A DNA stretch of 64,000 nucleotides from an uncultured Gammaproteobacteria bacterium (GCA_964430295.1 CAYSEV010000001.1:5699-69698); one strand, 5' to 3'; shown: positions 1,660 to 63,478, counted from the stretch's first letter. Numbers and translations are program-made. Notes: generated by a model not told the origin, from the letters alone.

Positions 1660-1789
1660 ATGGAGATAAGTAGTCTCACTTTGTCTCTGAGATGGGCTTC
1701 GCGGGACACACTTCGAACTTTTCCAATGCTGTTTTAATAATACATGTGGCAGTGCCACGCGTAGTCCCGATGTCTATCGGGACGAAGTG

Positions 1790-1860
1790 TGGACCCATCG
1801 AGAATCGAACTCGAGTCTCTGCAATGCGAATGCAGTGTTCTACCACTGAACCACGGGCCC
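1790..1860 (-). tRNA. tRNA-Ala, anticodon CGC.
   Basis: Reverse complement: GGGCCCGTGGTTCAGTGGTAGAACACTGCATTCGCATTGCAGAGACTCGAGTTCGATTCTCGATGGGTCCA. It folds as a cloverleaf with a 7-bp acceptor stem carrying the G3:U70 Ala identity pair, D-stem GTTC/GAAC, anticodon stem CTGCA/TGCAG with loop TTCGCAT (U33, anticodon CGC, A37), T-stem TCGAG/CTCGA with T-loop TTCGATT, and discriminator A. CCA is not encoded. Confidence 0.8.
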
Positions 1861-1876
1861 GATATCCAAAAGATGT

Positions 1877-1927
1877 GTCGCGTCAAACGCGACTACCTTC
1901 TCAAACGCGAAAACCGCGTTTGACGCG
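1877..1927 (-). promoter_or_regulatory. Structured spacer between the two tRNA-Ala genes. A 13-bp inverted repeat (cgcgtcaaacgcg at 1879-1891 and cgcgtttgacgcg at 1915-1927) encloses two perfect hairpins: GTCGCG-tcaaa-CGCGAC (1877-1893) and CAAACGCG-aaaac-CGCGTTTG (1902-1922).
   Basis: The complementarity can be read directly. On the transcribed (minus) strand the hairpins lie between the two tRNAs, and a short U-run (CUUUUGG) follows the second. The element could be a processing or anti-termination structure, or a weak terminator. Confidence 0.4.
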
Positions 1928-1928
1928 G

Positions 1929-1999
1929 TGGACCCGAGGGGAATTGAACCCCTTTCTACTCCATGCCATGGAGTTATACTACCGGTGTACTACGGGCCC
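1929..1999 (-). tRNA. tRNA-Ala, anticodon GGC.
   Basis: Reverse complement: GGGCCCGTAGTACACCGGTAGTATAACTCCATGGCATGGAGTAGAAAGGGGTTCAATTCCCCTCGGGTCCA. It has the same acceptor stem as the other tRNA, with G3:U70, D-stem GTAC/GTAT, anticodon stem ACTCC/GGAGT with loop ATGGCAT (U33, anticodon GGC, A37), T-stem AGGGG/CCCCT with T-loop TTCAATT, and discriminator A. Confidence 0.8.
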
Positions 2000-2300: not shown

Positions 2301-2453
2301 ACATCCAGTGTGGCATGAAAAAAGCGACCCTGTCAATCCCTAGTTTTCACGAAAATTATAGTATCCACATGTAAAATGCCAAAAATTGAGTGCCTCATTT
2401 GCATGTAACCGTACATAATTTTCTATTGATGCAGATATAGTACACACTGGCCA

Positions 2454-2482: not shown

Positions 2483-2581
2483 ATTACTATAGAAACACTT
2501 GCAGGGTTTCCGTACATGGGCACGTTTTGATTGTCAAAACAATAAAAACGACGGAATTGGGGCAGATTAAACGTCTGCACT

Positions 2582-5500
2582 GTGGGCGAACTTATACAAC
2601 GGGTTTTTCATCTGATTGAAAACAAAAGATATTCAGTATCTTCTTCTCAAAACCCCTCCAAACGATCTGGTTATTTATCGAATGATACGGTAAACAATAG
2701 TCGATCATCAGGGTTTGTTCAATTGCTTCCATTGGTTCTACTTGTCATTTTTGCCAGTAGTGTGTTTTTAGTGGTAAATCAGGTGGAACGATCAAATCAG
2801 GATGTTCGAAGTCGTGCTTCAGGACAGTATCCAAACGTTACGGTGACACCCGCTAAGACGAATACACCATCTCCCGCAAAAACAGTAACACCGACTGTCG
2901 TGAGAACGGGTACCCCCACCACTGCAAAAACAAATACTCCGGTGACAACAAGGACCGGTACACCGACCGCTGCAAAAACAAATGCTCCGGTGGCAACAAA
3001 AACTTCCACAACTACTCCGTTGGCACCGTGTCGTCCAAATATGCATAGAACAATGGGTGGGGACTGTGTCTCGAATTCCAGCACTACCGCACCAACGGGG
3101 TTTGTGAGCGGAAAGCCGGCAACGCCAAGGCCATCTGTTACCAGTGCACCAGCAGCTACTCCGACACCATGTCCGTTCTTCTCGATGTGTACATTGAACA
3201 AATTGCTTGGAAACAACACTCCGACACCGTCTCTCAAACCGACTACAACTGGTTCTTTTGGGAGCTTGGCCGGTACAGCGGGTGCAGGGACAGGAACGAG
3301 AAAACCAACTGCAACGCAGACGCAACGACCAAATCCAACAGGTTCGCCGTCTCCGACTCCAAAAAGCCGGTTTATGTGCGGATGCGGATTATTGGATGGT
3401 TCATGTTTGGCGAGTTGTGTAGCATCAGGGTTTTCTACACCAACAAAAACGCCGGTTCCGACAAGAACAACAACCCCGGCAAGGACTCCAACAGGTAATC
3501 CGTTTGCCGGAGTCACAGCAGGTGTTGGGACAAGAACGCCGACGCCTCAAAAAACAACAACGCCACAGAAGACGGCAACGCCAAACAAAACAGCGACACC
3601 CGGTGTCAGTGCTACACCGACATTGAAACCCGGCGCAGGTTGTGTCGTCGGTGTGTTTGGATTGTGGGATACGTGTAGTCAATGTTCAAATGGGCATCAT
3701 TCTGTCAGAGGTGGCGGAGAAGTATGTAACGGTGGGCCGTCAATCACACCTCCATGGCAGGCAACAAAAACGCCAACAATAAACCCATCAAAGTCACCTA
3801 CTGCAAAAGTCAGTGCGACACCGACAAAAACGGCACTTCAGAGTTGTATAGCAGGGTGCTATGGCTCGTCGTCCTGTATCACCCAGTGTGGTAAAAATAA
3901 TCCGACAGCAACGCCTCAAAAAACAGCAACACCGACGTTAAGCGATCTTCAGAAGCAGCAACAGGCATTGGGAGGATGTATTCAGGATGCAAAGGGAGAT
4001 GCCGCAAAAGTTAACGCATGTATCAGTAAGTATCCGAAGCCTTCAACAACGCCACAGAAGACGGCAACGCCACAGAAAACAGCGACACCTGGTGTCAGTG
4101 CAACACCAACGCTGAAGCCTGGAGCAAGTTGTGTTGTTGGCCTGTTTGGATGGGGAGATACATGTAGTCAATGTTCAAGTGGTCATCATGCTGTCAGAGG
4201 TGTTGGGGAAGTTTGTAACGGTGGACCGTCTATAACACCTCCATGGCAGGCAACAAAAACGCCAACACCAAAAGTAAGCATTACGCCTTCCAAAACAGTC
4301 ACACCAGCAAAAACAGGTACGCCTACTGCTGCCCCGACAATCGTTCTTCTGAAAGCAGGACAAAACTGTAATGTCTTTGGATCGTATGCAAGTTGTGGTC
4401 ATTGTCCATACGGAAGTGAACTGCAAGGATTAAATGGCGTCTGTAAACCGGCACCATCAGGGCAACCACAAGTTCCCACATATTTACAACCCGGAGCCGA
4501 TTGTAATCAGTCTGGAGCAGTGAACAACTGTAATAGATGTCCATATGGTGCAAATCTTGGTGGATATTGCTATCTGGCTCCCGATACAAAAATAAATCCA
4601 ACAGGTACGACAAAGCCAACAGGGACAGTTGCTGCTACAAGAACACCTACAGTTGCTCCAACAGGTACAGTTAGACCAACTGTAGCTCCATCAGCTAAAC
4701 CTGTGCCTACAACAACACCGCCACCCATACTTGCTGATCTGAAAAAAGGAACGCAAAGCTGCGGAGGTATAGATGCAGGTGCAGTTGTTATAGGAGAAGG
4801 ACATCATTTATATGGTTGTGATGGGAGAACAGGGACCTATGTTGATTTGACCAAAACTGGCACAGGCGTTACAGAAGCGGACCTGACTGCAAAGTATATA
4901 CCTGCATGGTATGAAGGATCAAAAACACAAACTGCTGTTGAAACGGCTCAATTTGAAGCGGCAAAAAATAAACAAAATAAAGAGAATGGTGTAGTTATCC
5001 CAAGCGGATCATGTTCGGGTGAAGGAGGAAGAAGTTATAGTGTCGGAACCGTTGTTATGGATAATTATGTCTGTGGCGAAGGTGGACGATGGACAAAGTG
5101 TGATCCGACAAAAGATGTCATGTGCGTACCCGATATTAGCAATATTCCGGCGTATGCACAACAAAGTATCACAAAGGCGCAGTATGATGCACTTTTGGCA
5201 AGTAACACTGCCGGCCTTATACAGGGAGCAGATGGAAAATACTATCAGATTACAGATCCAAAATTGGCCGCTGCGTATGATACCAAACAGAAAGAATTGC
5301 AAAAAATACAAAGTAATTTTGAAACCTGTGGTGGTAGTCAAAGCTGTGTGGATGCAGCACTCAAAGCTATGGGAAATTCCACAGCTGCACTGACCGCGAA
5401 AGTGAATTTTGTTGAGACACAACAATCCCAAAGCGCTCTCATGAGTTATTTTGAGCAAAAAGAACTGTATGACGCCTGTGTTTCACTGCACGGCGAATCA

Positions 5501-8500: not shown

Positions 8501-11500
8501 TTGGGACTTCATGAAACGCCGGTGACCGGAGGCGCAAATGCTGTAGAGGCAAAGCCTGAAGATCTGATCCCGCCCCCCGATGCATATGAACTTGCGAAAA
8601 CCAAGTATCTGGAAATGGTTGACGGCAACGGATTGCCTAAAAAAGGATTTACCGCGGAACAGGTAAAAACAGCAGAGACGGAGCTTAGAACTGCGTTGAC
8701 TCAAGAGGCGCAGAGGGTGGCGGCAAAGCAGCTTGCCGAAGAGTCTGTGGCAAATAAGTATGTGACGGCTGAACCTGCCAAGCCAGGTTTTATTGAATCT
8801 GTGAAGTCTCTCTTTACCAAGAAAACGTTTGTGGAAACATCCATTCAGTCAGATCTAGCCAAAGCAGCAGAGACAATGAAAGAAGCTGAAGCCAAGTACT
8901 TGGAAGCCAAAAAAGAAGCGGCAAAAACAGATACGACAAAAACACCGGAAGAACGGGCGGCTGACCTGCAAACGGCAAAGGAAGCATACGAAAAAGCGTA
9001 TGTTGACCTTGCAGGTAAAAACACACTGGCTATTCAGGAAAAATCTATTTACGATGGACCATCATTGGTTAAAAGAGTTACGGATTCAGTATTGGATCTT
9101 TTCAAAGGTAATCAGACTGAACGAAGCACGTTACAAAAAATGCAAGAGGAGGCTGCAAAGTTGGCCCGTGAATATCAGGCAGCGGATCCTGCCGCTAAAG
9201 AACAGCTGCATAATGACTATATTGAACAACTAGGCAACGTCCAAAAAGCACAGCAGGCATTAGACATCAGCAGACTTTCACCTGTGCAACAGGAGTTATA
9301 TAAGAAGATGGCTGCCGAAAAGCAGACGATTACGGATTTGCAAAAAAAGCTTGTCACAGAAGTTGCCTATAATGCGGAAAACACCACGCGTATTCAGGAG
9401 TTGGCTACGGAAATTGCCCAGCATAAGGTCACTCTCGCAAAAGCAGCGGCCGAAATGGCGATAGCAAAATCATTCGGTGGGCGGATCGCCGAACTGTTTG
9501 GGCAAACACAGTGGATCACTAATCGAGCGGCTCAGCAAACAGGTGCAGCACAAACGGAAGAAGCAAAGAAGAAACAGGAATTTAAAGCGTCACAGGCGGA
9601 AATTGAAAGCGCTCGAGATATCGTCAAACAGTATACAGAAGGGTTAAAAGCTGATAATCCGAGAGTATTGGAAATGCAGCGTGGACTCAATAAAGGTAGT
9701 GCAGAATTTACGAAAATACTGGAAGCAGAACGAACGGGTCTCACACCTGAGCAGGAAGCGACATGGAAGAAATCCATTATAGAAAATCAGGCAGAGCGTG
9801 ATGCATTGGCAGCCGGTGATCGCACTGCCGTTGAAAAAGCTATCTCTGATCGTTTTGAAGCACTCAAAGAGATCGAAGGTTTGACAGATTTAGAGAAATC
9901 GTACATTGAAAAACTAAGATCTTTGGAGGAACAAATAAGAAATAAAACAGTCGATACAAATCAGCTGATAAATGAGTTCAATAGAGCCCAAAAAGTTACC
10001 GAGTACAATAAGACACTTACAGATCTGCAAAAATCAATAGAAGCGCGATTGAAAGGTCCAGAGAATCTGCAACAAAGAGCTTCAGATTTGTTGAAAATCG
10101 TAAAAACTCTAAAACAAGTTGATTTGCTTGTAGATGTGCATACAGCAATCGGAGAAGGTAAGCCAGGTAAGGCTGCTTCTCTATTGCAGACAAAAGAATG
10201 GTCAATTCCCAAGGATATGGAGGGATTTACAGAACCCGGAATGAGCGAACAGTTTGAGTTTATCGTGCGCGATGTTGAGCATAGGCTTGCCGTTGATGAA
10301 GGTGGATTCAGAAGTCAGAGAGGCAATCAGGCAGATACAGTCCTCAAACTTATGCAGACGGACAGAATCGCCGTAGAGTTGACAACGAACGGAGTTAAAA
10401 CGACCATGGTAGGTTCAACAATCCTCAGAATGGAACTTGAGGTGTTTGAAAGGACTCCTGTGTTCGTAGCGAAAAAAGGCCAAACAGATGCTGTAAGAGA
10501 TATTATTAAAAAGTTAGTTCCAGAAGGGACAGATATTCAAATTGTTAAAGCAAGTGATTTAAATGGCACAGCAGGTGACGGTCGTGCTACTGCAATTGCG
10601 AATGCAGATATACTAATTATAGAACCGCATGAGGGAAACTTTATTCGCAATGCAAGCTTGGGCAAAGGTGAAAACGGCGCCAATATAGATGCAGCGACTA
10701 GAGTTTACAACAAGCTGACAAACGATGTTGCACTGTATGTTGATGAACTTCATCTGAATCTGGATATCAGCCAGCAGGGTATTAACCCGGTCGGCAATGA
10801 CTCCGCTCCGATTACAAAAGCACAGGCTGCGATAGCAAAAAGGACGGGAGACATTCTCAAAGACATGCAATTAATTGTCGAAAAGAACTTTGCGGAATGG
10901 GGTAAATACAATGGAAAAGACGGACTACTTCGGACAACAACACAGGCAGATGGAACGATCGTTTCCGATCCACGATTCTCAAGAGAAGTCGTAACTGAAT
11001 TCCTAAAGAGAATAGGCGAGTCTGAACGAATTCCGCAGGATATTATTGATACTATCCGCGACAGAGCTAGTGAATTTAAGAACCTATCGGAAAACGAAGT
11101 AGGAGTAAAACTGAAAGAACTGTTAGGAGAAAAAGCCTCAAGCAGTACTGTTGCCTCGTTAAGTGAGCAGGGCATAAAGGTGCTTGATTATATTGATTCT
11201 CTGAATACATTTGCCAATGGTATGGCGAGAACGTATGGTTCTGATTATCAGTACGCTATTGATGATGTAATCGCAAAGCAAAACGGAGGAGTTGAACGAA
11301 AGAGTGCCGTTCCTGCTTCAGGAGGAGATTTGAGTAAAGGCCAGGCGTTTGACTCAAAGATGATGCCTGCCATGGAATATCTAGCAGCGACAGCTGTGGG
11401 TGAGACCCCGAATTTTGAGGGGCTTAAGGCTACGCCAGAAAGTGCCTATAAATCCAGTGTTGCTGACTGGATGGGAGATCTTTCAAATGGGAGTGCTATC

Positions 11501-57500: not shown

Positions 57501-60500
57501 AAAGGGACACAAAGCAAACTCCTTTTGTTATAACGTCACTAACTTGGACTTCGGATAAGACCGAGTATAAAAAAACTGACTCAGATTTCAAGATTAAAAC
57601 AATAGGAAAACCAAATGATGCAAAGAAATCAGACATTGTATTGCCTGAAATCGGTCCTATAGGAGAGGGTCATGCAAGCACTCGATACTCTACATCTATG
57701 CGAACGCTTGAAATAAAACCGGAAGAAAAAGCATTTGCTATATGGATAAAGAAAAAAGGTGAACGGCTAGCTATCAAATATACCGCGCCAAATGCATACA
57801 GATCTTTAGCAACAGGTGATGAAGTGACGTTTTCATACGCATCCGCAGAGAGTGCATCAGAAGGTGTTACCTATGTTGTTGCTAAACTCGCTGACGGCAA
57901 TTTTGCATTTGTTTTGAGCTCTAATCACGAAGTGCTATACGGATTACCATTTATAGCACCGGAAAATGAACCTGTCTTTGTTCAGCAAAAAGCGAATCGT
58001 GTGCAGGGGAATACCGGCTGTGGAACGGCATATGATTCGTTTCTCACAGTCTTTGCCGAGGAACCTGCAGAGCCTGTCGTTTGTTATCCTGTCAGAGCAG
58101 GTTCGCTACTTCAGTTAACTAACGGTAAAAATATCCGCATCCCAAAATGGGGGATATATGTGCAAAATGGCTTGCATATCTTTAGTCCTAAGACAGTCAT
58201 GCAAGTGCCTAAAAACGGTTCGATAACAATTATAGGATTATGGGTATGGAGAACGATACAGGGAACAGAGATAACAAATACAACTCGTTCCATAACCGTA
58301 CTTCCCACATCATCTGGTGACATATCTTTACGTGCTTCTGCTTCACCTGGTGATTTTGTGAATAGTACTGCACATGAAGAACATACACGTCGCTATTACA
58401 AACAGGCAGTTATGGAACATGCTGCCCCTGATATTTCATTGGCTGCAGCGAAATCAATATTTTCAAGACTTTATAGAACGAATGCTCCAAATCGTGATGA
58501 AGCAAACAGATTATATATACAGGCATGGATTATTATGCATACACTTGTTGCAAATGGTCATCTTCGTGCAGAGCAAATTCCTACACTATATGCAGTTCGG
58601 GTAAAGGGAGAACTGCGCTATGTATTTTCCTTCGCGCAAACATTTATTACGCATAACCATACAATAACAAATGCGGATGGATTAACAGTACATACAGGAT
58701 CAGCGCCTGCAGAAACGATTTTGACATATATGCAACAAGCGGATCCGACGCTTTCTCAGTCAGATATATCTGAAGTAGTGTGGAATGCCTCTTCATACCC
58801 ATTTATGCCTATTGGTACTGAAATTGAGTCAGAATTATTAGAAAAAGATATTACTGTTGATACTCATGCTATTGCTCAGCTTGTTACTCCGGAAAAAATT
58901 ACTCTACTGCGGCAATTTCCGAATGGTTCAGGGACCGGTTTTGGTGTCAGTCAGATAGTCGCATCCGATCAGTTTGCTCTTTTAACCGCTGGTGTAAATG
59001 CAGAAGAGGTCGAGAGAATGTCCGGTATGATTCGTCAAATCATTACTGAAACTCTTGATTTGATGAGTGGTGATCCACCAATTGTAAAAATCAGAAATAA
59101 GATAGATGCGATTCGTTCAGAAAATTTTGATGAATTAATAAGAAATAACAGTGCATTACAACAGTCAGTATTGGAAAAGTCCAACTCACTCTTTGGTAAA
59201 GGCGTCCAGTATGTGAAAATTTGGCTTAATGCCTTCGGTCTCTATGTGGATTATGATACTGCCTTCAAGGCAATTCGTGAAAAGGTAAATACAGATGTAG
59301 TAGCCTTTGCAAGCTACATGAGTTTATATGAATCGGACAGATCCACATTCTCAGAACTGGATCAATTTGACGCTACTCGATATTTCCTTGATATGTTACA
59401 GGAAAGATACAACGTACAGCTGGCGCACTACAAAGGGGGGCTGTTTTTCAGACCTCTTGCATCTGGACATAAAAAAGATCCCGGAGGTCCACTAGATTAC
59501 GTTATCGATGCTGCTTTTGCGCAAAGTGCAAACCAGAATATTACATTCCTTAATCCGATTATCAAACAGTGGAAAGAACGCCATGTGTACGTTCTACAGC
59601 CATGGTATCTGAATTACCTACAGCCTGACATGAAGTATACGTCGTATACAGACCTTGGTATCACAGAAGAAGATATTCCGCTGGTAAACCTCTCAAGCCG
59701 CCCACAGGAAGATCAGCATATGTTGGCTAATCTCACAGGATTATTTCAGAAATATCTGAGAGCACCACTGGTAACGGATACGTTTACAGATCATGTCTCA
59801 CAGAGAAGACCATGGCTTTCAGCATTGAGATCAAGGATTACTCAGGAAAGAACCCAAAGTGATGCCACTGATTTTATCCGATGGATATCTACAAATAAGC
59901 TTTCCGGTGGGGAGATATCTCAAATGACAAGTCATGTCCTTACACTTCAGGCATTGGGAATATTTTCATTTTCTTCCGAACTTCTTGAGCAAGCAAACAC
60001 GTTACAATCATATTTCCTTAACAATAGTGAACGGTATGATTCACTTACAAATGAGGAAAAACTTACTGTTGTGCAGGATGCAATTTCATTTGCTAAGAAT
60101 GGTCTTAAAGAATTAGCATCCGCATCAGTTCTTGAATCTACTAATTTACCAAAAGAAGAACCTTCTGAAGTGCACTCAAAAGAATTAAAACAGGAAGAAA
60201 AAAAAGTATCAACCGAGAATTCCGGATGTGATATAACCATTTCCTTATTTCATCAAGTGTTTGCTCAGGAGCCTGCAGTACTTGTTAATTGTTATCCCAT
60301 TGGAGCAGGTTCGCTACTTCAGTTAACTAATGGGGACACCATACGTATACCAACGTGGGGAATATACGTTCAGAACCGCAAATTACATTTTTTTGGTCCT
60401 GATACGATACTGGAGGTTTCTCAGAATGGCAATATCACAATACTTGGACCGTGGTTGTTTCGCACAATACACGGAGGAGACATTTCACTTGAGGGAAAAC

Positions 60501-63478
60501 ACACTCAAACTCAGGATATTCGTGTAGTGGAAGAAGATCCTGTTACTGTTTCGCCAACAGTTGTCAGCGATGCCATGAAGGAGCGCATAAAATTATTGTT
60601 AGGAAATAAAGTATATGAAGCTGTGGCCGGGGTTATTTCTCAAAATAGAGAAGGAGCAAAAAAAGAACAGGATTTGCTTGACGCATTGGCTCAGTATATG
60701 GTTGACGCCAATTACAATTCACAGCTTGAAAAAATATCGCTCGATAAGTTTGTTGCTGATGTTCGAGGAATACTTGGTGAACACGCAGATGAATTTATAC
60801 AACAACTTGAAACTGTACGAGATCCGATTCACGAGGTATTTTCACCATCATCTCTTTTGCCATTTATCCATGAAGGATGGAGTGTTGATGCCAGGTTTGA
60901 TATTTCAAATTCTTCAAATATAAATCAGGCGTATACAAGCAACGTATTGGGTGATTATGCGTTCCGGTTTGGAATACGTGCCGTGTTGGACGTGATTGAT
61001 AGATACCCAGAATTACGGGGAAATGCAGTTATTGTACATTCATCAGGAGATGAACATCTTATTTTAACCAGAAATGGCTATAATTTACCGTTATCATTTA
61101 AGTCTGAAGTCGAACGCATATCAAAAGAGAAAAAAATCATTCGGAAAGGTTTTGATGGTTTACTGCATTATGAAGACTTAGGAGTTCACTTTTCTGATGT
61201 AAAATTTCCTATAGAAAAAACGATACCATCAGATGGAAATGTTGATATAACGCCAAAATATCTCAATGATACAAAAACGTCAAAAAGACTATTTAATTAC
61301 CATCCTGAAATGGCATTTATAGTGGATCGTATAAGCCAAATTCAGGTTAAATCTTCTTCTCAGAAAATAGATATAGCGGCAGGACAACGAGTAATGAGTT
61401 ATCTGCAATGGCTCTTTGAGCGAATTTATGTCGATGACATTATGGAACAGGGGTTTAATCAGTATGAAGCTGATAGAATATCCAAACCACATTATGACAG
61501 AGAACACATCTTTATTTATAAAGATTTTCGTGATTTTGTTGGAGGTATAAAACAGCGTGGTACAAAATTCAAACTCCTAAAGTTGGATTTCATTGGGAAT
61601 GCAAAACGTATAAATGATGAAATCAGTTATGAAGAGGGAAATAGGTTTATTCAGCAACAATTGGCTAAGACACTTGATATGTTGCATGCCCAAGGGATAC
61701 AAAACGTACGTATTTTTAGACGAGCAAGTGAATTTTATATTGCCCTTGAAGATGGTGAATATGCAAAAGAATTTGTAGATATATCGGATGAAAGTGTTCG
61801 AAAAGCATTGAATGGCACATTTACTACACTGGATGGAAGAAGCTTTTACGTACCGGTGTCCTATGCATTTACAGATTTGAAGCTGGTAAAAGATACAATC
61901 GCCGATGAAATATTACCGGACGGAACCCGTATAAATAGAAATATTAAAAATATGGGTGACGCATATGATCGTCTACGTGAACTGAGCAAGGCAAATGCAT
62001 ATAGATATTTGCAGAAAGTACTTCAGACAGAATCGATGACCGAACCAATGTGGGATTTCGTTATGTACTATTTTAACCCGAATGATAAACGGGGAATTAT
62101 GCGAATATCGGATCTGGCTATATCACCTGATGATCTTATACATCTGCAAACTTTTTATGCAGATCAGACGAGATATCAGAAACAGATACGCAGTATACTT
62201 ACCACGGTTATAAGAAACTACATACCAAAACAGACCCGGATAATTTCTGAAAAACACAGTACGATATCGCTTAAAAAATGTCTTGTAGATGCTGGCGTTC
62301 AACATGTCGTATATGCGCAGGATGCAGGTGGGGGAGGTGGTTGGACATGCCCGCCGTTTTTACAGGCACCTTGGAAAACGATTAAGACATATACAGAGCA
62401 ATTTAACATGCCAGATTTTTCTATACAAAAAATACTTGGAGCAGGAATGGGACTGCTAAAGAAAGCAGGCAAATGGACCATTGGACTCTTTCCATTTAGT
62501 TGTAGAACAATTGTATACATGATGCTACATGATATTGATCAGGGAGTCATTCATACTGAATATGCAAAAGACGCGTTCCCGACAATCTTTAAAGGTGAGG
62601 CTGCATGTACAGAATTAATGAAAAATTTAATAAGCGATAGTCAATTAATTATCATAGGAGATACGAGTGTGACAAGGGTTGTCGATGGAGAGGTTATACG
62701 ATTTTATCTCAATAATTCCACTACAGCTAAAAATTTAGGATTAGAACAAGACAGCGAAAAAAAACCCGCTTTTATAATTGAGCCAATAGCAAATGGAATA
62801 ATAGTTCCTTTGACAGATCTAGCGACAGTACAAGCAGCGTATGCAAGTTTAGGAAAGACATTGCAAGATCCGGTATCTGTCGTCTATTTAGGAACAGTCG
62901 GAGATGGTTCAACATATAAATATAACGGTACTTTTGTATTAAAAACCGGATTCGATCAGAACAACATATGGGTAATGTCTAATGGTCAACAAATAACTGC
63001 AGCCACTAGTATAAATCCAAAAGATTTATATCCAACTGCAGTGCAGATTCAAACATTATATGACTATCGGGACATATATGATCTATCTTATGCAACGAGG
63101 AATAATGAACTAAGGTTATTGTCACAACTATCGCAACAATTCAACGATTATATTTATAATAATTCAAATTCTTTTGCATTCCAAGGATACATAAATATGG
63201 TCGGCTTTGATAAAACTGGAAAGCCTGTACATATTTTTGTTGATAGGTCCGTATTTTATAATCTCGAATTACAACAAGAGTTTAGAGAGAATTTAGAAAA
63301 AGAAGGAATTCAACATCAGGTAGCGATTTCAGATGTTGTAGAGAGTACTATGATATCTACAAACACTGGAAACTCGATAGATGAGTCAACACAAAAACCG
63401 GTGGCAGACCATACGTGGAATGGTATCATTAACAATGAAAAATTAAACGAGGATACACCATTTGTTATTATTCGGTAA
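45542..63478 (+). CDS. Giant multi-domain membrane protein 2, 5,978 aa from the ATG at 45542 (the ORF is open from TTG 45494). It contains N-terminal TM helices, TM pairs, repeated Cys-bracketed modules, two HExxH domains, a class-3 lipase domain and long internal repeats.
   Basis: The frame is uninterrupted for about 18 kb. The first ATG, at 45542, is preceded by GAGG (45530-45533) at 8-nt spacing, whereas the TTG at 45494 has no RBS. The N-terminus MVGMLQYLFAFVSHIFTLF...MSGMVVGFILSFSIIYGIS is hydrophobic. The protein's architecture is paralogous to the C-terminal 1,200 aa of gene 1. Confidence 0.88.
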   Translation: MVGMLQYLFAFVSHIFTLFTKRFSHGLQSKKHHSIVFGGMSGMVVGFILSFSIIYGISQDCRSAIHQLVSFKLIPVVHAAQNCPVLPPAEVAAAKANAVKKESQLRGFAKVLNQPYAITFFQYLNQLLGGSSKTANTADKTASTPLENTSSLNNISEDKVLNGQAAKEHILALARKYKGVLSTQLLSHIETAIGVGMLPKEYMSFNDGEKIQFLAGGQSSALFTPAVLQKLADYALVDPRIAIGQFSEMAAATYAEQLPQESDIRLAIVKLKEMGVNQYSLKLQLFSDGQPLWIVNTSGQSFVIRAKKTTIPIEEVRSRIASLGDTIPFTYAEQLAPGKVLLFIRNLSYDNDGEYVKLPEQASFVEKVLERFRDLGFEPDFVHESYMNLQNFMYSKFYGKMFYVDQDVFDELLKSDGIKPNDKVTRAVNSQLEELSKRSSVKTPDTAPSSVTPNPSSALNTAKQQAVVSRLKLALDGANNALVNSQRNFWFAAVGTIVFAIGMIAIMATVPWLIVPAALALLVTVPSSMFLIPNFYMSMDTNRQTLQSAQAQYISAQNDLLILERSQASATPLNISSEQAKARAQETLDAATKANNVAFNNLVFGSAATIAIVFLAVAVMMISPGLFVLPSAIALVGVVLLSSFGLFRLSSNFNTSLSTLRGTQQVVKTGVSQVISKDNPCKPTGFHLFGQVYAEGPCIILSVGGDPVATAKEGEKGEPIPSTPAQILPGSTYVVGTFDELKNVTEGKDSVGTQIKEIPSDQYVKVFPPVGATGPNNQPIQPFVVDVPTIYATQQANQPIQQQNSGAKVNMSDSSPNTTTTIRNTINRILDIRSWFPSPYSIIQNNIVLRMFAPFISPVTTSISPWSIFGRGRSEPIQEIANIVSSEEAQQYVISKYNAMISALESGAKLSSTRTTMMRAEAIAGLIASPAENIDAANRRYAMAFILMNTLVDRELAHPRQVERFFMVRTSKGIRLIYTDGKNFVTNTNPKSSTERVAVKYLTGGIKEALAYMQEYDSTVQLSDFEEVNWDASLFPFMDRTNIAPDSAKIRSKRGVEIAEDIVKKLENPPIPTAIEFAKDKLMELQPEKASSVDRALKDIAVDMNAVDGDQAVKQNAIYRKFFGDPIWQNYGLAKGYFELHVAAPKKYPLELKANSDELTDESLKAIHEWYESQQTPDEAHQERLNRGGALNMVQKIKTLLAKLGIKLPLAETDPIHNSVVVFSDDQFKLLYPDKEDANILAFYDERLGLYVIRSSANLTSNQKTELEEIKFMIAAHEAGHDMVRYIGPFMTHEWNEGMATMFMIALLVKQNGISWTEARAKVVAFVSPEYVKHLEMVEQSQFGSVLIERAFEKGFTSETVADVFLTFYKKLPNKEKMLAGATYADSTNAFTTAVTSTAQQFGIITPDQKVELWPKLYTFFVDNTVAKDLDPDTEVKFDPTTRSIGKKRVTLPILSSIPSSELFGTIAGLDRKGYALPKADFDSLDIEAPGYVLAVQNDSEAKEYLERLYRTYPGAATKPIFILVATSRRTAVSGNVLLTSNGSDLLRALDTIFQSSGPLHELRTQAKKTEVTEIRPGVYQFGSALFFVDKTTGAMAMDYAPDTSLASVQIDGRSLAQTAYVFNNTQIGISGVAYTVTTQGNAVILIKENGESVQLPIAAKSLREFPKNPGQSPLPAPVLPATQKQAAQPVVSVKQPEAVLKNPVSTSDEANVLTMKTKDGVIKVRRAELVDGKLIGHGAIIYDDPAKQIEYGATEMPIRIMFNTTDENLSGLTQETLMRELERRYVYANDVLIAWHGYLETGEQFEPAGNTVLEPWDKNGKRQMMIALSHSGTEGTYVENPDYTAKNLIAQVEAAVELVSEQINYTDEDVHITLMGHSLGGAIAFKLAEKHGLDTTGVWAKVKYIMLTPYVGDPNQLTLLNEYSLIPGVKSLGILRIINSWYLPSALRRGLLAFAHFVGFDEALFSAMMSLDLKKMDDASVRLSKDIALKNLSDAPVAIRMTQSLLNIGMVENNAPLQDLTRKSRMVVFYPGVDDTLDSAITRSFNLSRGFFQVGYDRTHNPSTASYKSHIFEVVQGLFEGFDIQKTRPGVFAQIDRRSHNFYKVVWDGLKMKFSKLSSTDPCTPTISVQIFGRVYAAGENCVIFYSNSEVETRTENGQSTGIKRNIPQSGTFRVVTQEQLTDEVLNPQTTDFKFNGKISFTNSLDGQTQNRYLVVFPSDNTPAFIIRIPDIHTQSGTQSGKVVSIDTHTNVRLDGKTWKLSYSAADTSAKLNGISLGQGDISLEKGSRNTLYVAPNYVLLIDIDPNSNELTYQKLPSDDPRVVFESLEIESLPESISPQVRERRDAAYKGDLARSILNNVDEAQDARMIEFRDGSRAFPKTPPHPAYSGETSSWKYHSEYAQKELWNSYYTSLVAALASGKSKEDIKGEVNKLLAQFRNTANLELFKEKQAFSDGLVRQLEAQPAEEFLPLTLGSAFREILNRYPLLKTIITPDQLAALKRVLIEEVKNAYMLFAASGSNAILEARGYFFPNPVKSVTTNENGSLVIDTLKKDEANTIIEIRNKDGTYKKNPVILAAYIKAIEEGAQYISFTLASKTDEGFNEILPDLAEYVYEHNRNPKYKSSPVVLMVDAVQLFGRAPESEVFQWLLVEGISGVIHTGSKAAAGPAHAGITHISTYGKTVTGTVSTVDQSIANMTTPAIVRAIGNLKAIRGMWDLGPAFQLYSPIAVALQRVYDRFFTRIGLVPIGDEEGFQRKNTFGSIRTYRLMMGWDGKTIVDAKKLLATWSPVWLMGGVLEETPLAGPLLRNGIPIGVMKWLKETVITPEDLKDPHMSAEKAANAVDDALRQVEGRMQDDLIRLAEENGVYLRIADEIAPVDQTEAAAQAALIALVNTAAKRTGVQDEGESCDPTQVGIHILPRVYAAGCKTGMTRKLYNQLITGAKLLGTRMNRIVWGRLFGKKNVFGQFKQNQVQNITSRSRLFVYSNEQMNISKYFSTEQLSDFDSIINKILDNYNKTGSYDIRHSSQQKDVININDDLTAEEKYGRMFDWTKSFFILKALQKYTKLYPFYLIGHSIIVANAALFSGTDFGTFLYQKALPWMYATVSSDIKHTAILMMISYINNLSIAGEIADMSVSELSEFNREVVNTFIKAFDRNFQLAYSNASTGLDSDELRSDAEKKILQAITINSYFPILPLPRFLTGMINQNGFMGHGTGVAFLSKALIVENRKQAISTSVHEMNHMQVDTQINTPELNYYSHLPYGLSMTLDESITRLNQLESIDAYNESYYDIGVIKLLTVLKPFLVEKVGQNTADQVFAQIKLGDFSTIVSIFGGWDAFRAYLQDPTMFGSYYKIDEIQYRDNSSDVWKKVNFENDREIFLSQSAELLLPNGIVVPMQKSIISGVKKKTNKQIVDSKSRILYTYDNADIAEEIELKDDKYILLKEYVSIGINITDFSSRLIVGARKSKEILAMQSEYADLLHSLFVEPDDVVSSIHANVNPIAKTIYMRSAHIDATCILGQRLIPQVFAESIGTVQTSYCEFAGREGLLYSPNAVLRAMIGNANGQVTRLTAIAKSLAVNADNPELSPTERRMWHFLGQIIGGDLFTYMEKLQQTTAKKIRISDAQMEDLYATYIALYPHVREAIARKNEQGTVTATYDPEVVYAVLKNTPVEIRELAVRAVSFMMQTAQHDDAGNIMSMPMDIDSVEGRRHLHDALAYYNDQFFAWLSLASPDGYQQYQERLSGRAPNALRRDVSDVSSLELIFPTIQTSASSAFPFSTQVVGSTPSKETMKSLYTVVNGDTVTASTETMSVILRDPQGRTDQSERMSIMAEEIGKYFQKHELMPEHLMDVWPQDALRFFLREQLQLMGIKKETVELTFVFRIKDVNGQWIGVALTNTDEPLVINKEGSKAVRASDPAELGTVALAQVVDKFKSEWNVYFYPIPKTGNQYVMTRKNIKSIQNELLSTMALDVPVSAYGEKLTEILQRDTKQTPFVITSLTWTSDKTEYKKTDSDFKIKTIGKPNDAKKSDIVLPEIGPIGEGHASTRYSTSMRTLEIKPEEKAFAIWIKKKGERLAIKYTAPNAYRSLATGDEVTFSYASAESASEGVTYVVAKLADGNFAFVLSSNHEVLYGLPFIAPENEPVFVQQKANRVQGNTGCGTAYDSFLTVFAEEPAEPVVCYPVRAGSLLQLTNGKNIRIPKWGIYVQNGLHIFSPKTVMQVPKNGSITIIGLWVWRTIQGTEITNTTRSITVLPTSSGDISLRASASPGDFVNSTAHEEHTRRYYKQAVMEHAAPDISLAAAKSIFSRLYRTNAPNRDEANRLYIQAWIIMHTLVANGHLRAEQIPTLYAVRVKGELRYVFSFAQTFITHNHTITNADGLTVHTGSAPAETILTYMQQADPTLSQSDISEVVWNASSYPFMPIGTEIESELLEKDITVDTHAIAQLVTPEKITLLRQFPNGSGTGFGVSQIVASDQFALLTAGVNAEEVERMSGMIRQIITETLDLMSGDPPIVKIRNKIDAIRSENFDELIRNNSALQQSVLEKSNSLFGKGVQYVKIWLNAFGLYVDYDTAFKAIREKVNTDVVAFASYMSLYESDRSTFSELDQFDATRYFLDMLQERYNVQLAHYKGGLFFRPLASGHKKDPGGPLDYVIDAAFAQSANQNITFLNPIIKQWKERHVYVLQPWYLNYLQPDMKYTSYTDLGITEEDIPLVNLSSRPQEDQHMLANLTGLFQKYLRAPLVTDTFTDHVSQRRPWLSALRSRITQERTQSDATDFIRWISTNKLSGGEISQMTSHVLTLQALGIFSFSSELLEQANTLQSYFLNNSERYDSLTNEEKLTVVQDAISFAKNGLKELASASVLESTNLPKEEPSEVHSKELKQEEKKVSTENSGCDITISLFHQVFAQEPAVLVNCYPIGAGSLLQLTNGDTIRIPTWGIYVQNRKLHFFGPDTILEVSQNGNITILGPWLFRTIHGGDISLEGKHTQTQDIRVVEEDPVTVSPTVVSDAMKERIKLLLGNKVYEAVAGVISQNREGAKKEQDLLDALAQYMVDANYNSQLEKISLDKFVADVRGILGEHADEFIQQLETVRDPIHEVFSPSSLLPFIHEGWSVDARFDISNSSNINQAYTSNVLGDYAFRFGIRAVLDVIDRYPELRGNAVIVHSSGDEHLILTRNGYNLPLSFKSEVERISKEKKIIRKGFDGLLHYEDLGVHFSDVKFPIEKTIPSDGNVDITPKYLNDTKTSKRLFNYHPEMAFIVDRISQIQVKSSSQKIDIAAGQRVMSYLQWLFERIYVDDIMEQGFNQYEADRISKPHYDREHIFIYKDFRDFVGGIKQRGTKFKLLKLDFIGNAKRINDEISYEEGNRFIQQQLAKTLDMLHAQGIQNVRIFRRASEFYIALEDGEYAKEFVDISDESVRKALNGTFTTLDGRSFYVPVSYAFTDLKLVKDTIADEILPDGTRINRNIKNMGDAYDRLRELSKANAYRYLQKVLQTESMTEPMWDFVMYYFNPNDKRGIMRISDLAISPDDLIHLQTFYADQTRYQKQIRSILTTVIRNYIPKQTRIISEKHSTISLKKCLVDAGVQHVVYAQDAGGGGGWTCPPFLQAPWKTIKTYTEQFNMPDFSIQKILGAGMGLLKKAGKWTIGLFPFSCRTIVYMMLHDIDQGVIHTEYAKDAFPTIFKGEAACTELMKNLISDSQLIIIGDTSVTRVVDGEVIRFYLNNSTTAKNLGLEQDSEKKPAFIIEPIANGIIVPLTDLATVQAAYASLGKTLQDPVSVVYLGTVGDGSTYKYNGTFVLKTGFDQNNIWVMSNGQQITAATSINPKDLYPTAVQIQTLYDYRDIYDLSYATRNNELRLLSQLSQQFNDYIYNNSNSFAFQGYINMVGFDKTGKPVHIFVDRSVFYNLELQQEFRENLEKEGIQHQVAISDVVESTMISTNTGNSIDESTQKPVADHTWNGIINNEKLNEDTPFVIIR
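49300..49700 (+). other. HExxH domain type B in gene 2 (HEAGH at 49370-49384).
   Basis: The context is ...EEIKFMIAAHEAGHDMVRYIGPFMTHEWNEGMATMFMIALL..., with a downstream Glu-containing segment that could supply the third zinc ligand. Confidence 0.35.
50890..51330 (+). other. Class-3 (fungal-type) lipase / alpha-beta hydrolase domain with a GHSLGG nucleophile elbow.
   Basis: The sequence ...RQMMIALSHSGTEGTYVENPDY...DEDVHITLMGHSLGGAIAFKLAEKHG...KYIMLTPYVGDPNQ carries GHSLGG at 51170-51187. Together with the downstream P-x-V-G-D/N motif, this reproduces the Lipase_3 signature (hh-GHSLGGA-hA, then G-x-P-R-V-G-N). Confidence 0.6.
55160..55620 (+). other. HExxH domain type A in gene 2 (TSVHEMNH...GGWDAF), the paralogue of 41050..41520.
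   Basis: HEMNH lies at 55256-55270. Its context is ...KQAISTSVHEMNHMQVDTQINTPELNYY...; about 85 aa downstream is ...DFSTIVSIFGGWDAFRAYLQDP. Confidence 0.45.
58011..58335 (+). repeat. Internal repeat R1 of gene 2, about 105 aa and beginning with the Cys-bracketed module. It is repeated at 60218..60500.
   Basis: R1 NTGCGTAYDSFLTVFAEEPAEPVVCYPVRAGSLLQLTNGKNIRIPKWGIYVQNGLHIFSPKTVMQVPKNGSITIIGLWVWRTIQGTEIT aligns with R2 NSGCDITISLFHQVFAQEPAVLVNCYPIGAGSLLQLTNGDTIRIPTWGIYVQNRKLHFFGPDTILEVSQNGNITILGPWLFRTIHGGDIS. The two copies share an identical 26-nt DNA core, gcaggttcgctacttcagttaactaa. Confidence 0.8.
60218..60500 (+). repeat. Internal repeat R2 of gene 2.
   Basis: See R1. Confidence 0.8.

Follow-up and report, generated by a model that had tools for sequence, protein, structure and literature searches.

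The closest known kind of protein to the pair described here is the giant multi-transmembrane SecA_DEAD protein of Omnitrophota ("archaeovorin-type"), with similar large proteins in Actinobacteriota. The Omnitrophota giants have numerous transmembrane (TM) regions, a divergent SecA_DEAD domain without scaffold or wing, and Ser/Thr phosphatases; they were proposed to mediate adhesion to prey and the digestion of cell walls, the SecA-like domains threading segments of their own chain across the membrane (West-Roberts et al. 2023, bioRxiv 10.1101/2023.11.21.568195). In that work, proteins of at least 10,000 aa are termed "large" and those of at least 30,000 aa "giant"; its only mention of the CPR is as one instance of predatory nanobacteria, and it nowhere uses the terms Patescibacteria, Microgenomates or Gottesman (bioRxiv 10.1101/2023.11.21.568195).

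We analysed a stretch of DNA of 64 kb, called here the window, which contains two very long genes, g1 and g2; coordinates are those of the window and features lie on the plus strand unless stated otherwise. The products resemble the Omnitrophota giants in general kind, yet form a distinct and very small sequence family. Both sets are very long single ORFs from ultra-small, probably host-dependent bacteria, with many hydrophobic or TM regions (in g1 and g2 by a hydropathy heuristic) and with Ser/Thr-phosphatase-type and peptidase domains, and both are mostly unannotatable, their domains emerging through structure prediction. A divergent SecA_DEAD-type motor without scaffold and wing is also common to the Omnitrophota giants and g1, where it was recognised by structure alone, and this SecA-like motor ties the locus to the described proteins. 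The phylum differs (Patescibacteria, Gottesmanbacteria, versus Omnitrophota), and so does the length, 14,241 and about 5,980 aa against at least 30,000 aa. Searches of all tiles against Pfam and NCBIfam returned no glycosyl hydrolase or transferase, methylase or methyltransferase, NUDIX, dockerin, thrombospondin or beta-helix domain; g1 and g2 have in their place a Tae1-like amidase, an FHA and a lipase-like domain. No type II secretion or carbohydrate import gene was found near g1 and g2 in the window (3.1 kb of flank).

Polyvalent proteins and polymorphic toxins, as described by Iyer, Burroughs and Aravind, are reportedly long mosaics of peptidases, wall hydrolases and helicase-type ATPases, the polyvalent proteins being said to be soluble products of mobile elements that are delivered into a recipient cell. 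With them g1 and g2 have in common the mosaic string and the shuffling of module content between relatives; unlike them, g1 and g2 are chromosomal, syntenic within their lineage and rich in TM clusters. The sole Pfam hint in this direction, LPD16 in one relative at E 0.21, is not significant.

Two separately started genes of exceptional length

Gene g1 (2582..45307) comprises 14,241 codons plus the stop and begins with GTG, and g2 (45542..63478) comprises 5,978 codons from the ATG at 45542, which has a GAGG 8 nt upstream and agrees with the size of about 5,980 aa given in the first-pass annotation; the g2 frame is open already from a TTG at 45494, which would give 5,994 aa. The two genes span 60,663 nt combined and share a frame, separated by a 186-nt AT-rich spacer with four in-frame stops. 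The GTG at 2582 is supported as the start of g1 because residues 1-85 are conserved (67-70% identity) in the related loci L001 and L002, and a promoter-like TTGACG-17-TATATT lies ahead of it at 2454-2482.

With a stop-codon frequency of 0.064, computed from the base composition of the window, log10 P(no stop) is -412 for g1 and -173 for g2, and chance origin of the open frames is therefore ruled out. Across the same stretch, each of the remaining five frames is interrupted by 637-1,514 stops, and no open run in them exceeds 280 codons. GC by codon position is 0.53/0.41/0.34 in g1 and 0.51/0.38/0.31 in g2, uniform across 3-kb blocks except for the Thr/Pro-rich first block, so that the earlier reading of both ORFs as real coding sequences stands: g1 and g2 are genuine, separately started genes. 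The DNA had been called AT-rich, which it is, though moderately so (GC 0.35-0.47). Internal repeats had been named as a point to check in the assembly; the locus contains just two DNA repeats, short and diverged, and misassembly-prone repeats are nearly absent. The statement that g1 ranks among the largest known bacterial proteins was too strong, since reported proteins reach 85,804 aa (bioRxiv 10.1101/2023.11.21.568195); by the size classes of West-Roberts et al. 2023, g1 (14,241 aa) is "large", not "giant", and g2 has 5,978-5,994 aa. About 85-90% of the 20,219-20,235 residues of the two proteins are without a match in Pfam, NCBIfam or PDB.

Lineage, neighbouring genes and conservation

Upstream of g1 lies the syntenic anchor of the locus, a gene for a 361-aa LysM and M23 peptidase protein (574..1659; Pfam Peptidase_M23 E 4.8e-31, LysM E 1.2e-18). 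Its orthologues occur in 80 loci at 48-85% identity, mostly in MAGs of Gottesmanbacteria, which agrees with the earlier naming of the CPR as a main source of comparable giant genes and assigns the genome to Candidatus Gottesmanbacteria (CPR/Patescibacteria). The CPR account for much of bacterial diversity, and a life in attachment to other cells is assumed for them. Two tRNA-Ala genes (anticodons CGC and GGC; ARAGORN, Rfam) are located on the minus strand between the M23 gene and g1 (1789..1999), and the C-terminal part of a YfhO-family membrane protein (63479..63988, minus strand; Pfam YfhO E 1.8e-8, above cut-off) is convergent with g2; with rho, these genes make up the visible flanks (3.1 kb). 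The window contains no mobile-element genes (integrase, phage or conjugation).

Across Gottesmanbacteria, the locus keeps its chromosomal synteny with rho, the M23 gene and tRNA-Ala. In 26 of 42 related loci the M23 gene is followed, at most 3.5 kb downstream, by the start of an ORF that stays open to the end of the DNA examined, with 2,200-3,175 aa visible as minimum lengths; the other 16, including the complete chromosome L016, are without the gene at this position. In five metagenome loci, ORFs stay open over at least 3,274-7,364 aa. The relative P0001 covers g1 residues 686-3560, and the metagenome locus L084 matches g1 at 1092-2065, 2323-3370, 6961-7043 and 10165-10292, in the same order. 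As complete Gottesmanbacteria chromosomes are about 1 Mb, the 60.7-kb gene pair would take up about 6% of one; the little of it that can be read comprises a translocation-type motor, a toxin-like wall amidase and a lipase-like domain.

Architecture and membrane segments

The view of the pair as mosaic proteins with several hydrophobic clusters, sharing modules without being simple repeats of one unit, was confirmed by internal comparison and a hydropathy scan. Few internal similarities were seen: g1 3726-4198 resembles g1 6585-7050, g1 8411-8599 resembles g1 9117-9296, g2 4156-4261 resembles g2 4886-4998, and g1 12846-13393 resembles g2 438-818 and g2 3250-3360 at 22-25% identity. The scan gave about 20 candidate TM segments in 10 clusters for g1 and 5 segments for g2; the topology is thus that of a hydropathy heuristic, and the outward-facing segments were assigned by inference.

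At the N-terminus of g1, a candidate membrane anchor (aa 46-64, 2717..2773; hydropathy 2.58) is kept in the relatives P0001, P0008 and P0013 and in many loci. It is followed by a Thr/Pro-rich, Cys-pair-rich region with PTSG-rich windows (aa 65-1965, 2774..8476), into which 56 of the 69 g1 cysteines fall, as close pairs, and which is probably extracytoplasmic. This region contains a module at aa 686-1010 with 43-51% identity in L001, L028, P0001 and P0008, and one of the two DNA repeats, D1, is a 229-nt tandem duplication within it. Further along are a multi-pass hydrophobic module (aa 3726-4198, 13757..15175) with four hydrophobic segments at aa 3879-4033, a single hydrophobic helix (aa 5020-5038, 17639..17695; hydropathy 2.06) that precedes the hydrolase cluster, a second multi-pass module (aa 6585-7050, 22334..23731) recognised by hydropathy and by paralogy to the first and conserved in L084 at aa 6961-7043, and a hydrophobic cluster at aa 10894-10919 (35261..35338). 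The module common to both proteins (41117..42760 in g1, resembling the two g2 stretches named above) has an HExxH motif at aa 12851, strong TM helices at aa 13063 and 13190 and a Cys-loop at aa 13283, and gave no family match in Pfam. In g2, a TM-pair module (aa 513-644) with a Cys-loop at aa 697 (46805..47947) is paralogous to g1 12982-13393.

A predicted SecA-like motor in g1

Structure prediction and fold search indicate that a divergent SecA-like motor ATPase is built into the g1 chain at aa 2540-3380 (10199..12721). The predicted fold of two RecA-like lobes and the position of an insertion after motif II agree with SecA, and the motifs follow the order I, II, III, V, VI seen in SecA and SecA2. 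In g1 as in SecA, a long insertion separates motifs II and III; in SecA it is the preprotein cross-linking domain of about 150 aa, whereas in g1 it has about 320 aa. Identity to SecA is about 10%, with no significant sequence or profile match. Unlike that of the Omnitrophota giants, the motor is not detected by the Pfam SecA_DEAD model, SecA is not among the matches of its profile in the PDB, and with hhalign against E. coli SecA motif I alone aligns, at a probability of 0.5-1.9%. The motor also differs from SecA in that no helical wing or C-terminal domains are recognisable and in that it sits inside a 14,241-aa membrane protein.

Among 1.84 billion representative proteins, the motor family is limited to 23 clusters, the longest member having 7,842 aa; its members are large and mosaic without exception, and no canonical SecA is found among the HMMER relatives. 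Identity of the motor is 29-36% where that of the M23 neighbour is 60-75%. The Walker A consensus of the family is TTAGGKT, and GGK is present in 11 of 11 relatives, whereas g1 has TTNGVKT, with valine for the glycine before the lysine, so that g1 may have an impaired motor. Similarity to g1 revealed no SecA-like module in g2. The motor, which is the most conserved module of the locus, was absent from the first-pass annotation.

A Tae1-like amidase and a papain-like domain

By fold and profile, aa 5731-5917 of g1 (19772..20332; Cys5780, His5853) are predicted to form a Tse1/Tae1-like peptidoglycan amidase, and the earlier description as peptidoglycan-hydrolase-like holds; its activity and location are putative. 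The model has a pLDDT of 70-95 over these residues. With it, the best 17 Foldseek matches were all Tse1/Tae1 (E 6e-7, target TM-score 0.70-0.76, 20-23% identity), the next family being NlpC/P60 at E 0.14. The domain profile (A5) matched Tse1 as the sole PDB entry (E 0.003), with the histidine aligned to that of Tse1 GHVAVV, and the Cys, Asp and His, among them Cys5780 and His5853, are invariant across 9 sequences. Tse1/Tae1 of Pseudomonas aeruginosa, a type VI secretion (T6SS) effector, thus has the fold and the conserved catalytic Cys/His in common with the g1 domain; unlike it, the g1 domain is internal to a giant membrane protein and has no adjacent immunity gene. Neither a T6SS nor an immunity gene was found within the 64-kb window, and to our knowledge type VI secretion is not known from the Gottesmanbacteria lineage.

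The amidase-domain family is without a Pfam model and also has small members outside giant proteins. One of these, P0026, is encoded in a flagellar operon, where a rod-associated wall hydrolase is expected; others, as read from their sequences, have a Tat signal or an LXG/WXG-like toxin N-terminus (the latter in P0030).

Ahead of the amidase, a weakly supported papain-like Cys/His domain of CHAP/C39 type may be present at aa 5146-5310 (18017..18511). Its Pfam CHAP match is below cut-off (E 0.058) and its AF2 model is of low confidence; the motifs ICGPLS and HWITI are kept in P0012, in which a Pfam-significant SLT lytic transglycosylase lies between two Cys/His domains.

FHA and PP2C-like domains

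The FHA domain of g1 (aa 4316-4379, 15527..15718) matches PF00498 at E 1.7e-12 with 48 bits against a cut-off of 20.7, with FHA matches in the PDB and NCBIfam too, and FHA domains occur in the relatives P0001, P0005, P0006 and P0007. FHA domains are frequent regulators of cell-envelope processes. Two PP2C-like domains follow, the first at aa 8411-8680 (27812..28621) and its paralogue at aa 9117-9380 (29930..30721; 31-35% identity). The PP2C matches are low: NCBIfam Stp1_PP2C E 1.7e-5 with 24.5 bits against a cut-off of 230 for the first domain, Pfam PP2C_2 E 2.4e-4 with 21.2 against 24, and Pfam PP2C 14.3 against 20.3; in the PDB, the profile of domain 1 matched PP2C proteins only, at E 0.06-0.15. 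Active PP2C enzymes have the motifs DGxGG and GDSR. The corresponding metal-binding positions read AEGKG and VGNSS in domain 1, where the catalytic Asp is replaced, and THGLG and VGNVQ in domain 2, and both domains thus appear catalytically degenerate. Of the phospho-signalling-like content proposed earlier, the FHA domain stands, and the two PP2C-like domains are weak matches without the catalytic Asp.

A lipase-like domain and HExxH modules

An alpha/beta-hydrolase of class-3 lipase type is a borderline assignment for g2 aa 1805-2080, approximately (50906..51733), which contains GHSLGG at aa 1893. The GxSxG nucleophile elbow is present, and the Asp and His of a triad can be read off the sequence. 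On a 221-aa tile, LIDHydrolase reached 28.0 bits (cut-off 27) and Lipase_3 22.4 (cut-off 22), both falling below cut-off on a 1,000-aa tile, so that the lipase-like label given earlier reaches the Pfam cut-offs by a narrow margin on the short tile. The tile also matches many Abhydrolase families, with Tle3 at E 0.11, and phospholipase A1 was matched in the PDB at E 0.084.

Four HExxH motifs, to which the earlier metalloprotease-like label goes back, are distributed over g1 and g2, in modules with no Pfam, NCBIfam or PDB family match, and HExxH is conserved in the relatives P0001 and P0012. The C-terminal domain of g1 (aa 13823-14205, 44048..45196), with HELQH and no Pfam match, recurs at the C-terminus of P0012 (aa 7479-7834, E 7.6e-22) with HERQH. 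A conserved g2 module with AHEAGH (aa 1050-1463, 48641..49882), also without a family match, aligns to P0001 aa 4808-5204 at E 2.4e-97, AHEAGHD being kept there, and the HEMNH module of g2 (aa 3221-3360, 55154..55573) is a paralogue of the g1 12829-12965 region.

Proposed function and alternatives

The overall best explanation, to which we give a probability of roughly 0.55, is that the pair forms a contact device with which an ultra-small, host-dependent cell grips a partner and locally opens its wall and membrane; g1 and g2 may thus serve in attaching to a host or attacking it, and the single multi-functional surface machine put forward earlier would be a reasonable reading. The N-terminal helix, a strong hydrophobic segment conserved in relatives, would anchor g1, and the Cys-pair pattern suggests that about 1,900 aa of Thr/Pro-rich, disulfide-paired stalk would then be exposed outside the cell. 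The cytoplasmic SecA-like ATPase may thread later extracytoplasmic segments of its own chain through the membrane, with the repeated multi-pass hydrophobic modules as anchors or conduits. Beyond a further helix, a wall-active cluster would be exposed, made up of the weak CHAP/C39-like Cys peptidase and the putative amidase with its predicted fold and intact catalytic Cys/His. To this g2 would contribute the borderline alpha/beta-hydrolase or lipase and the HExxH modules, putative proteases by motif. On the cytoplasmic side, the FHA domain and the degenerate PP2C-like domains could serve in regulation or docking that depends on phospho-Thr, and, speculatively, cleavage at the disulfide-bridged V[YF]A loops might split both proteins into modules.

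The wall amidase and the M23 neighbour fit self-directed wall remodelling equally well, and the pair could be a housekeeping scaffold that serves the cell in building and remodelling its wall and membrane during growth and division or in anchoring an S-layer or pili, amidase and lipase acting on self and the FHA and PP2C-like modules linking them to cell-cycle phospho-signalling. The conserved position of g1 beside a LysM-M23 (NlpD/EnvC-like) gene across Gottesmanbacteria, the YfhO-family envelope glycosylation protein downstream, the self-directed use of the amidase fold in a flagellar operon and the frequent regulation of envelope processes by FHA domains all point this way. We nevertheless consider it unlikely: evolution is very fast (motor 29-36% against 60-75% for the M23 neighbour), modules are gained and lost among close relatives as is typical of conflict or interaction proteins and not of core machinery, 16 of 42 related loci, one a complete chromosome, lack the gene here, the solved structures nearest to the amidase are of an interbacterial toxin, and among other small homologues of the amidase domain, to judge by their sequences, are proteins with a Tat signal or with a toxin N-terminus of LXG/WXG-like type. 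A polymorphic toxin or polyvalent effector aimed at competitors, or mobile-element cargo, which would release a string of toxin domains (amidase, lipase, metallopeptidases) into rival bacteria rather than serve a life on a host, would fit the Tse1/Tae1-like amidase, the lipase-like domain with its faint Tle3 match, the N-terminus of P0030, typical of type VII polymorphic toxins, the shuffled mosaic of modules among relatives and the Cys-loops as conceivable release sites. The stable chromosomal synteny across a candidate phylum-level group argues against it, as do the lack of integrase, phage and conjugation genes in the window and of an immunity-like small gene adjoining the amidase (as this domain lies inside the ORF), and the many internal TM clusters and built-in motor point to a resident membrane protein; we regard this reading, too, as unlikely.

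An assembly artefact with chimeric joins, or a decaying pseudogene that has lost expression, would account for the split of the gene over two overlapping frames in the closest orthologue locus, L001, for the lack of a homologue spanning g1 aa 3560-14241 continuously and for the absence of g1 and g2 themselves from the searched protein collections. It is, however, very hard to reconcile with log10 P(no stop) of -412 and -173, with codon periodicity that is uniform in 3-kb blocks outside the Thr/Pro-rich first one, with only two short, diverged repeats, with distant relatives collinear over more than 9,000 aa of g1, with a g1 C-terminal domain common to P0012 and with equally open ORFs in dozens of independent assemblies, and we give it hardly any weight. 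The pair extends the theme of the giant SecA-bearing membrane protein, described in Omnitrophota, to ultra-small bacteria of a second radiation, and offers concrete testable parts: the amidase domain of about 190 aa, the lipase domain, the motor and a candidate processing motif. The locus also exposes a Pfam-less Tae1-like family found too in flagellar operons and toxin-like proteins.

A recurrent Cys-loop motif

A series of Cys-loops with V[YF]A, which resemble signal-peptidase sites, runs through g2 at aa 2140, 2926, 3533, 4176, 4912 and 5596 (51911..62350), with further copies at g2 aa 77 and 697 and g1 aa 12003, 13283 and 13753. The regular expression for the motif was matched 7 times in g2 against 0.024 expected and 3 times in g1 against 0.06 expected. 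This recurrent disulfide-loop motif may mark processing sites. A bolder and rather doubtful proposal is that g1 and g2 form a self-exporting, self-partitioning "effector belt", which would let a genome of about 1 Mb deploy type-VI-like effectors without a secretion system: the Tae1-like amidase and the lipase would be joined in cis to a SecA-like motor and membrane conduits of their own, and the chain would be nicked at the V[YF]A loops into modules of 600-1,400 aa that stay tethered until host contact. Neither the Cys-loop motif nor the Gottesmanbacteria-wide synteny figured in the first-pass annotation.

Reading frames and coding capacity of the two giant genes

The two co-directional giant ORFs reported in the first-pass annotation were found at the positions it had given. 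Giant gene 1 (g1; 2582-45307, + strand) begins with GTG and codes for 14,241 aa, and giant gene 2 (g2; 45494-63478, + strand) codes for 5,994 aa from a TTG or 5,978 aa from the ATG at 45542, which has a GAGG ahead. With stops expected at 6.4% of codons from the base composition of the window, the log10 probability of finding none is -412 for g1 and -173 for g2. Read in any of the remaining five frames, this 60.9-kb stretch shows 637-1,514 stops, and no open run exceeds 280 codons. For codon positions 1/2/3, g1 has a GC content of 0.53/0.41/0.34 and g2 one of 0.51/0.38/0.31, and this ordering is kept in all 3-kb blocks except the first, a Thr/Pro-rich stretch, which indicates that g1 and g2 are coding along their entire length.

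The two genes are in a common reading frame and are separated by a spacer of 186 nt. A single split gene or a stop-codon read-through was considered in view of this common frame and rejected, because the spacer is AT-rich and contains four stops and because g2 has its own GAGG-ATG start. Only two notable DNA repeats were present in the window, one of them of 120 nt with 76% identity (at 58048 and 60256). So few repeats offer scant material for a repeat-driven chimeric assembly, and an artefactual origin of g1 and g2 is very unlikely. The other, a 229-nt direct repeat with 86% identity (3555-3783 and 4044-4272), gives rise to two copies of a Cys-rich unit in the protein (g1 aa 341-415 and 504-582, 76% identical as protein), the sole recent internal duplication of g1.

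Lineage and conservation of the locus

The LysM + M23 peptidase gene upstream of g1 (M23) was used as the syntenic anchor. In a search of one-genome-per-species contigs, its orthologues were 48-85% identical, and those with a meaningful name came overwhelmingly from Candidatus Gottesmanbacteria, the remoter ones from Roizmanbacteria and other Microgenomates; the collections searched do not include the window's own genome, and a look-up of the exact M23 protein gave no entry. A Gottesmanbacteria-type synteny and an M23 gene 59-85% identical to that of the window occur in dozens of MAG records with the title 'uncultured Gammaproteobacteria bacterium' (in one case 'Rikenella'). These titles, among the related loci L001-L080, seem to be placeholders or taxonomically wrong, and many of the records under the Gammaproteobacteria name clearly belong to this lineage.

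Synteny was counted in 42 loci that extend 8 kb or more past the M23 orthologue on its downstream side. In 26 of these an ORF begins within 3.5 kb downstream and is still open where the fetched DNA ends, so that 2,200-3,175 aa of it can be read. Such an open ORF is missing from all four Roizmanbacteria-like loci, and the giant gene is absent at this position from one complete Gottesmanbacteria chromosome (L016). The syntenic ORFs have the N-terminal anchor in common with g1; their closest members show 43-51% identity over the module at g1 aa 686-1010, and the collinear block at g1 aa ~2440-3370 is 29-34% identical. The giant gene is evolving at a far higher rate than its M23 neighbour. In the locus whose M23 gene is most similar (L001, 85% identity) the orthologous giant gene lies in two overlapping frames, 8553-11249 and 11069-17713, which reflects either an assembly frameshift or a true disruption.

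A SecA-like motor in the conserved core of g1

Alignment of g1 aa 2440-3380 with its orthologues brought out helicase-type motifs: motif I (AVELTTAGGKT), motif II (VDELQINLDPSRQAINP, which resembles VDEVDSILIDEARTPLI of SecA), motif III (AVTGAxADG, separated from motif II by an insertion of ~320 aa), motif V (GRGGATGDSI) and motif VI (QAGARIDR). By sequence, the block could be assigned to no family. Tests for SecA with Pfam (tiles as well as relatives), with a profile run against the PDB and with hhalign on E. coli SecA gave negative or insignificant results, and it was only structure that settled the conserved core of g1 (aa 2540-3380) as a predicted SecA-like motor. When 1.84 billion representative proteins were searched exhaustively with HMMER, only 23 motor relatives emerged, 16 of them with E<=1e-30 and with lengths up to 7,842 aa; no canonical SecA was among the 23.

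The Walker A motif of g1 (window 10385-10405, aa 2602-2608) reads TTNGVKT, and all 11 aligned relatives have Gly-Gly-Lys, as TTAGGKT or, in the closest relative of g1 (P0001; 7,292 aa, motor 59% identical), TTNGGKT. This replacement of Gly by Val beside the P-loop Lys could weaken the binding of ATP, or it could be a sequencing error.

Mosaic organization and domain content

Internal similarity within g1 and g2 is sparse, and the earlier description of the two products as mosaic rather than repeat proteins was thus borne out. P0001 is collinear with g1 aa 686-3560 and then continues with a pair of FHA domains, an AHEAGH module of the g2 type (aa 4808-5204) and a g2-type C-terminal region (aa 7021-7270); g1-type and g2-type modules can therefore share one protein, and the g1/g2 split varies between genomes. 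Another relative, P0012 (7,842 aa), contains both g1-type Cys/His domains and has the C-terminal HExxH domain of g1 at its own C-terminal end. A search with the motor alignment found five metagenome loci, each with an ORF that stays open from end to end of the fetched DNA (at least 3,274-7,364 aa). One of these, L084, matches g1 aa 1092-2065, 2323-3370, 6961-7043 and 10165-10292 with the order kept, which argues that the module order of g1 is real. A metagenome scan with the C-terminus of g1 found no relative.

When 1,000-aa tiles of g1 and g2 were scanned against Pfam, NCBIfam and PDB sequences, three signals only were obtained: an FHA domain (g1 aa 4316-4379, 48 bits against a cut-off of 20.7), a weak PP2C and, in g2, a weak alpha/beta-hydrolase. 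A short tile covering g2 aa ~1805-1970 reached 28.0 for Pfam LIDHydrolase (cut-off 27) and 22.4 for Lipase_3 (cut-off 22); the segment matches many alpha/beta-hydrolase families and contains a GHSLGG nucleophile elbow, so that its assignment as a putative alpha/beta-hydrolase or lipase is borderline in score and coherent.

The PP2C signal comes from two paralogous domains, g1 aa 8411-8680 and 9117-9380 (window 27812-28621 and 29930-30721), with E-values of 1.7e-5 for NCBIfam Stp1 and 2.4e-4 for Pfam PP2C_2, and with PP2C proteins as their only PDB profile matches. Active PP2C enzymes have the metal-binding Asp motifs DGxGG and GDSR. Because these are replaced in both copies, by AEGKG and THGLG and by VGNSS and VGNVQ, respectively, the domains are probably pseudo-phosphatases, without phosphatase activity.

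Four HExxH motifs are present (g1 aa 12851 and 14011, g2 aa 1293 and 3255), and two of the corresponding modules show strong conservation in relatives, which have kept the motif; neither a family nor a fold match was obtained for the HExxH modules. A protein-kinase-like region read by eye at g1 aa ~11,480-11,720 (VKIVKI ... DFVGTDN ... LLDPG) received no support from Pfam. Similarly, ART-, HD- and GGDEF-like motifs read by eye in P0001 were not confirmed by Pfam, and a regex search found none of them in g1 and g2.

A Tae1-like amidase domain and its papain-like neighbour

With g1 aa 5700-5950 as query, seven small proteins of 165-399 aa were retrieved, none with a Pfam annotation, and a single Cys, Asp and His as well as an AQAG motif were invariant in the alignment. 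The AlphaFold2 model of g1 aa 5110-5935 was confident only for its last 190 residues (aa ~5731-5917, pLDDT 70-95). The 17 best PDB structure matches of this segment belonged without exception to Tse1/Tae1, a peptidoglycan amidase that Pseudomonas aeruginosa uses as a type VI secretion effector, with an E-value of 6e-7, target TM-scores of 0.70-0.76 and 20-23% identity; the next family, NlpC/P60, followed at E 0.14. The sequence profile of the domain against PDB likewise matched Tse1 entries only (E 0.003-0.02), and its conserved His aligned with the GHVAVV His of Tse1. On the model, g1 aa 5731-5917 is a toxin-like predicted wall amidase of the Tae1 kind.

A role as wall hydrolase is supported by the context of P0012, P0026 and other homologues. 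In P0012 a Pfam-significant SLT lytic transglycosylase lies between the two Cys/His domains. The gene of the small homologue P0026 (L082 5001-5885) belongs to a flagellar operon, with FliK/FlhB-like genes on one side and FliD on the other; its product may be a wall hydrolase associated with the rod, as FlgJ is. As read from their sequences, P0024 has a Tat-type signal and P0030 an LXG/WXG-like N-terminus. The Tae1-like domain, which occurs in the small homologues (P0024-P0030), defines a family without a Pfam model.

Just upstream of the amidase, g1 aa 5146-5310 forms another Cys/His domain, whose match to CHAP stays below threshold (E 0.058), and is a candidate CHAP/C39-like domain. From its sequence, a DPBB/RlpA-like fold is suspected in the segment between the two domains.

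Membrane segments, cysteine residues and the Cys-loop motif

A hydropathy scan showed a strong N-terminal helix in both proteins, and further hydrophobic clusters at aa 1749-1775, 3879-4033, 5020-5038, 6751-6960, 10894-10919 and 13063-13313 of g1 and at aa 513-644 of g2. Fifty-six of the 69 Cys residues of g1 lie within aa 150-1965, as close pairs in a Thr/Pro-rich region; the whole Cys-rich part extends over window 2774-8476 (aa 65-1965). The pattern is that of a probable disulfide-bonded extracytoplasmic stalk. The following 9,300 residues (aa 1966-11265, window 8477-36376) contain two Cys only, Cys5152 and Cys5780, each the candidate catalytic Cys of a papain-like domain.

The 18 Cys residues of g2 form nine pairs. 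Eight of these, and likewise three C-terminal pairs of g1, enclose a recurrent Cys-loop motif, C-x(5-20)-hydrophobic-x-[QRPT]-[VI]-[YFH]-A-[AEQDT]-x(1-16)-C. By regex it was counted 7 times in g2 and 3 times in g1, compared to 0.024 and 0.06 expected. The copies are located at 45722-45790, 47582-47635, 51911-51970, 54269-54325, 56090-56161, 58019-58084, 60227-60292 and 62279-62350 in g2, and at 38588-38650, 42428-42484 and 43838-43897 in g1. They are spaced 600-1,400 residues apart, and local duplication accounts for two pairs of copies only. The first g2 copy directly follows the N-terminal helix and resembles a signal-peptidase AXA site (...LIPVVHA before the site, AQNC after it). We speculate that the motifs might be nicking or processing sites, the disulfide holding the cut chain together, or hinges that delimit modules.

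Proposed function and comparison with known giant proteins

The best-supported reading is that g1 and g2 code for a resident envelope protein pair of a host-dependent ultra-small bacterium. The pair would form an external stalk; the built-in SecA-like motor and the repeated membrane modules would place later segments outside, where the enzymes would be directed at peptidoglycan and lipid, and the FHA and pseudo-PP2C modules would lie on the cytoplasmic side. As target we prefer the envelope of a partner cell, with a probability of about 0.55. That the enzymes act on the cell's own envelope is rather unlikely, and an action on competitors, as known from polymorphic toxins, is somewhat less likely still.

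In Omnitrophota, and also in some Actinobacteriota, giant proteins are reported to have numerous TM regions and a very divergent SecA_DEAD without scaffold or wing, proposed to aid their own export (bioRxiv 10.1101/2023.11.21.568195). The g1 protein carries this hallmark of TM regions with a divergent SecA-like motor. The domain set of g1 and g2 differs from that of the Omnitrophota giants. The general kind is already known from West-Roberts et al.; the motor family is tiny and without annotation. A literature search found no papers on giant genes in Gottesmanbacteria or Microgenomates. The most original leads are the Cys-loop motif and the fusion in cis of a Tae1-like effector.

Flanking genes

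Another very long ORF, of up to at least 3,187 aa, lies upstream of M23 on the opposite strand in L004 (2-9562, - strand) and in L039, L050, L051, L053 and L056; no similarity of these ORFs to g1 or g2 was detectable. In the window, a pair of neighbouring tRNA-Ala genes (anticodons CGC and GGC; 1789-1860 and 1927-1999, - strand) runs opposite to M23 and g1 and is surrounded by terminator-like hairpins. Between these tRNA genes and g1 lies an ORF of 86 aa (2076-2336, - strand), without a Pfam match, with a basic N-terminus and one hydrophobic helix. It has a sigma-70-like promoter, TTGGCA-16-TATAAT, at 2382-2355 (11/12 match), and could be a genuine small membrane-protein gene.
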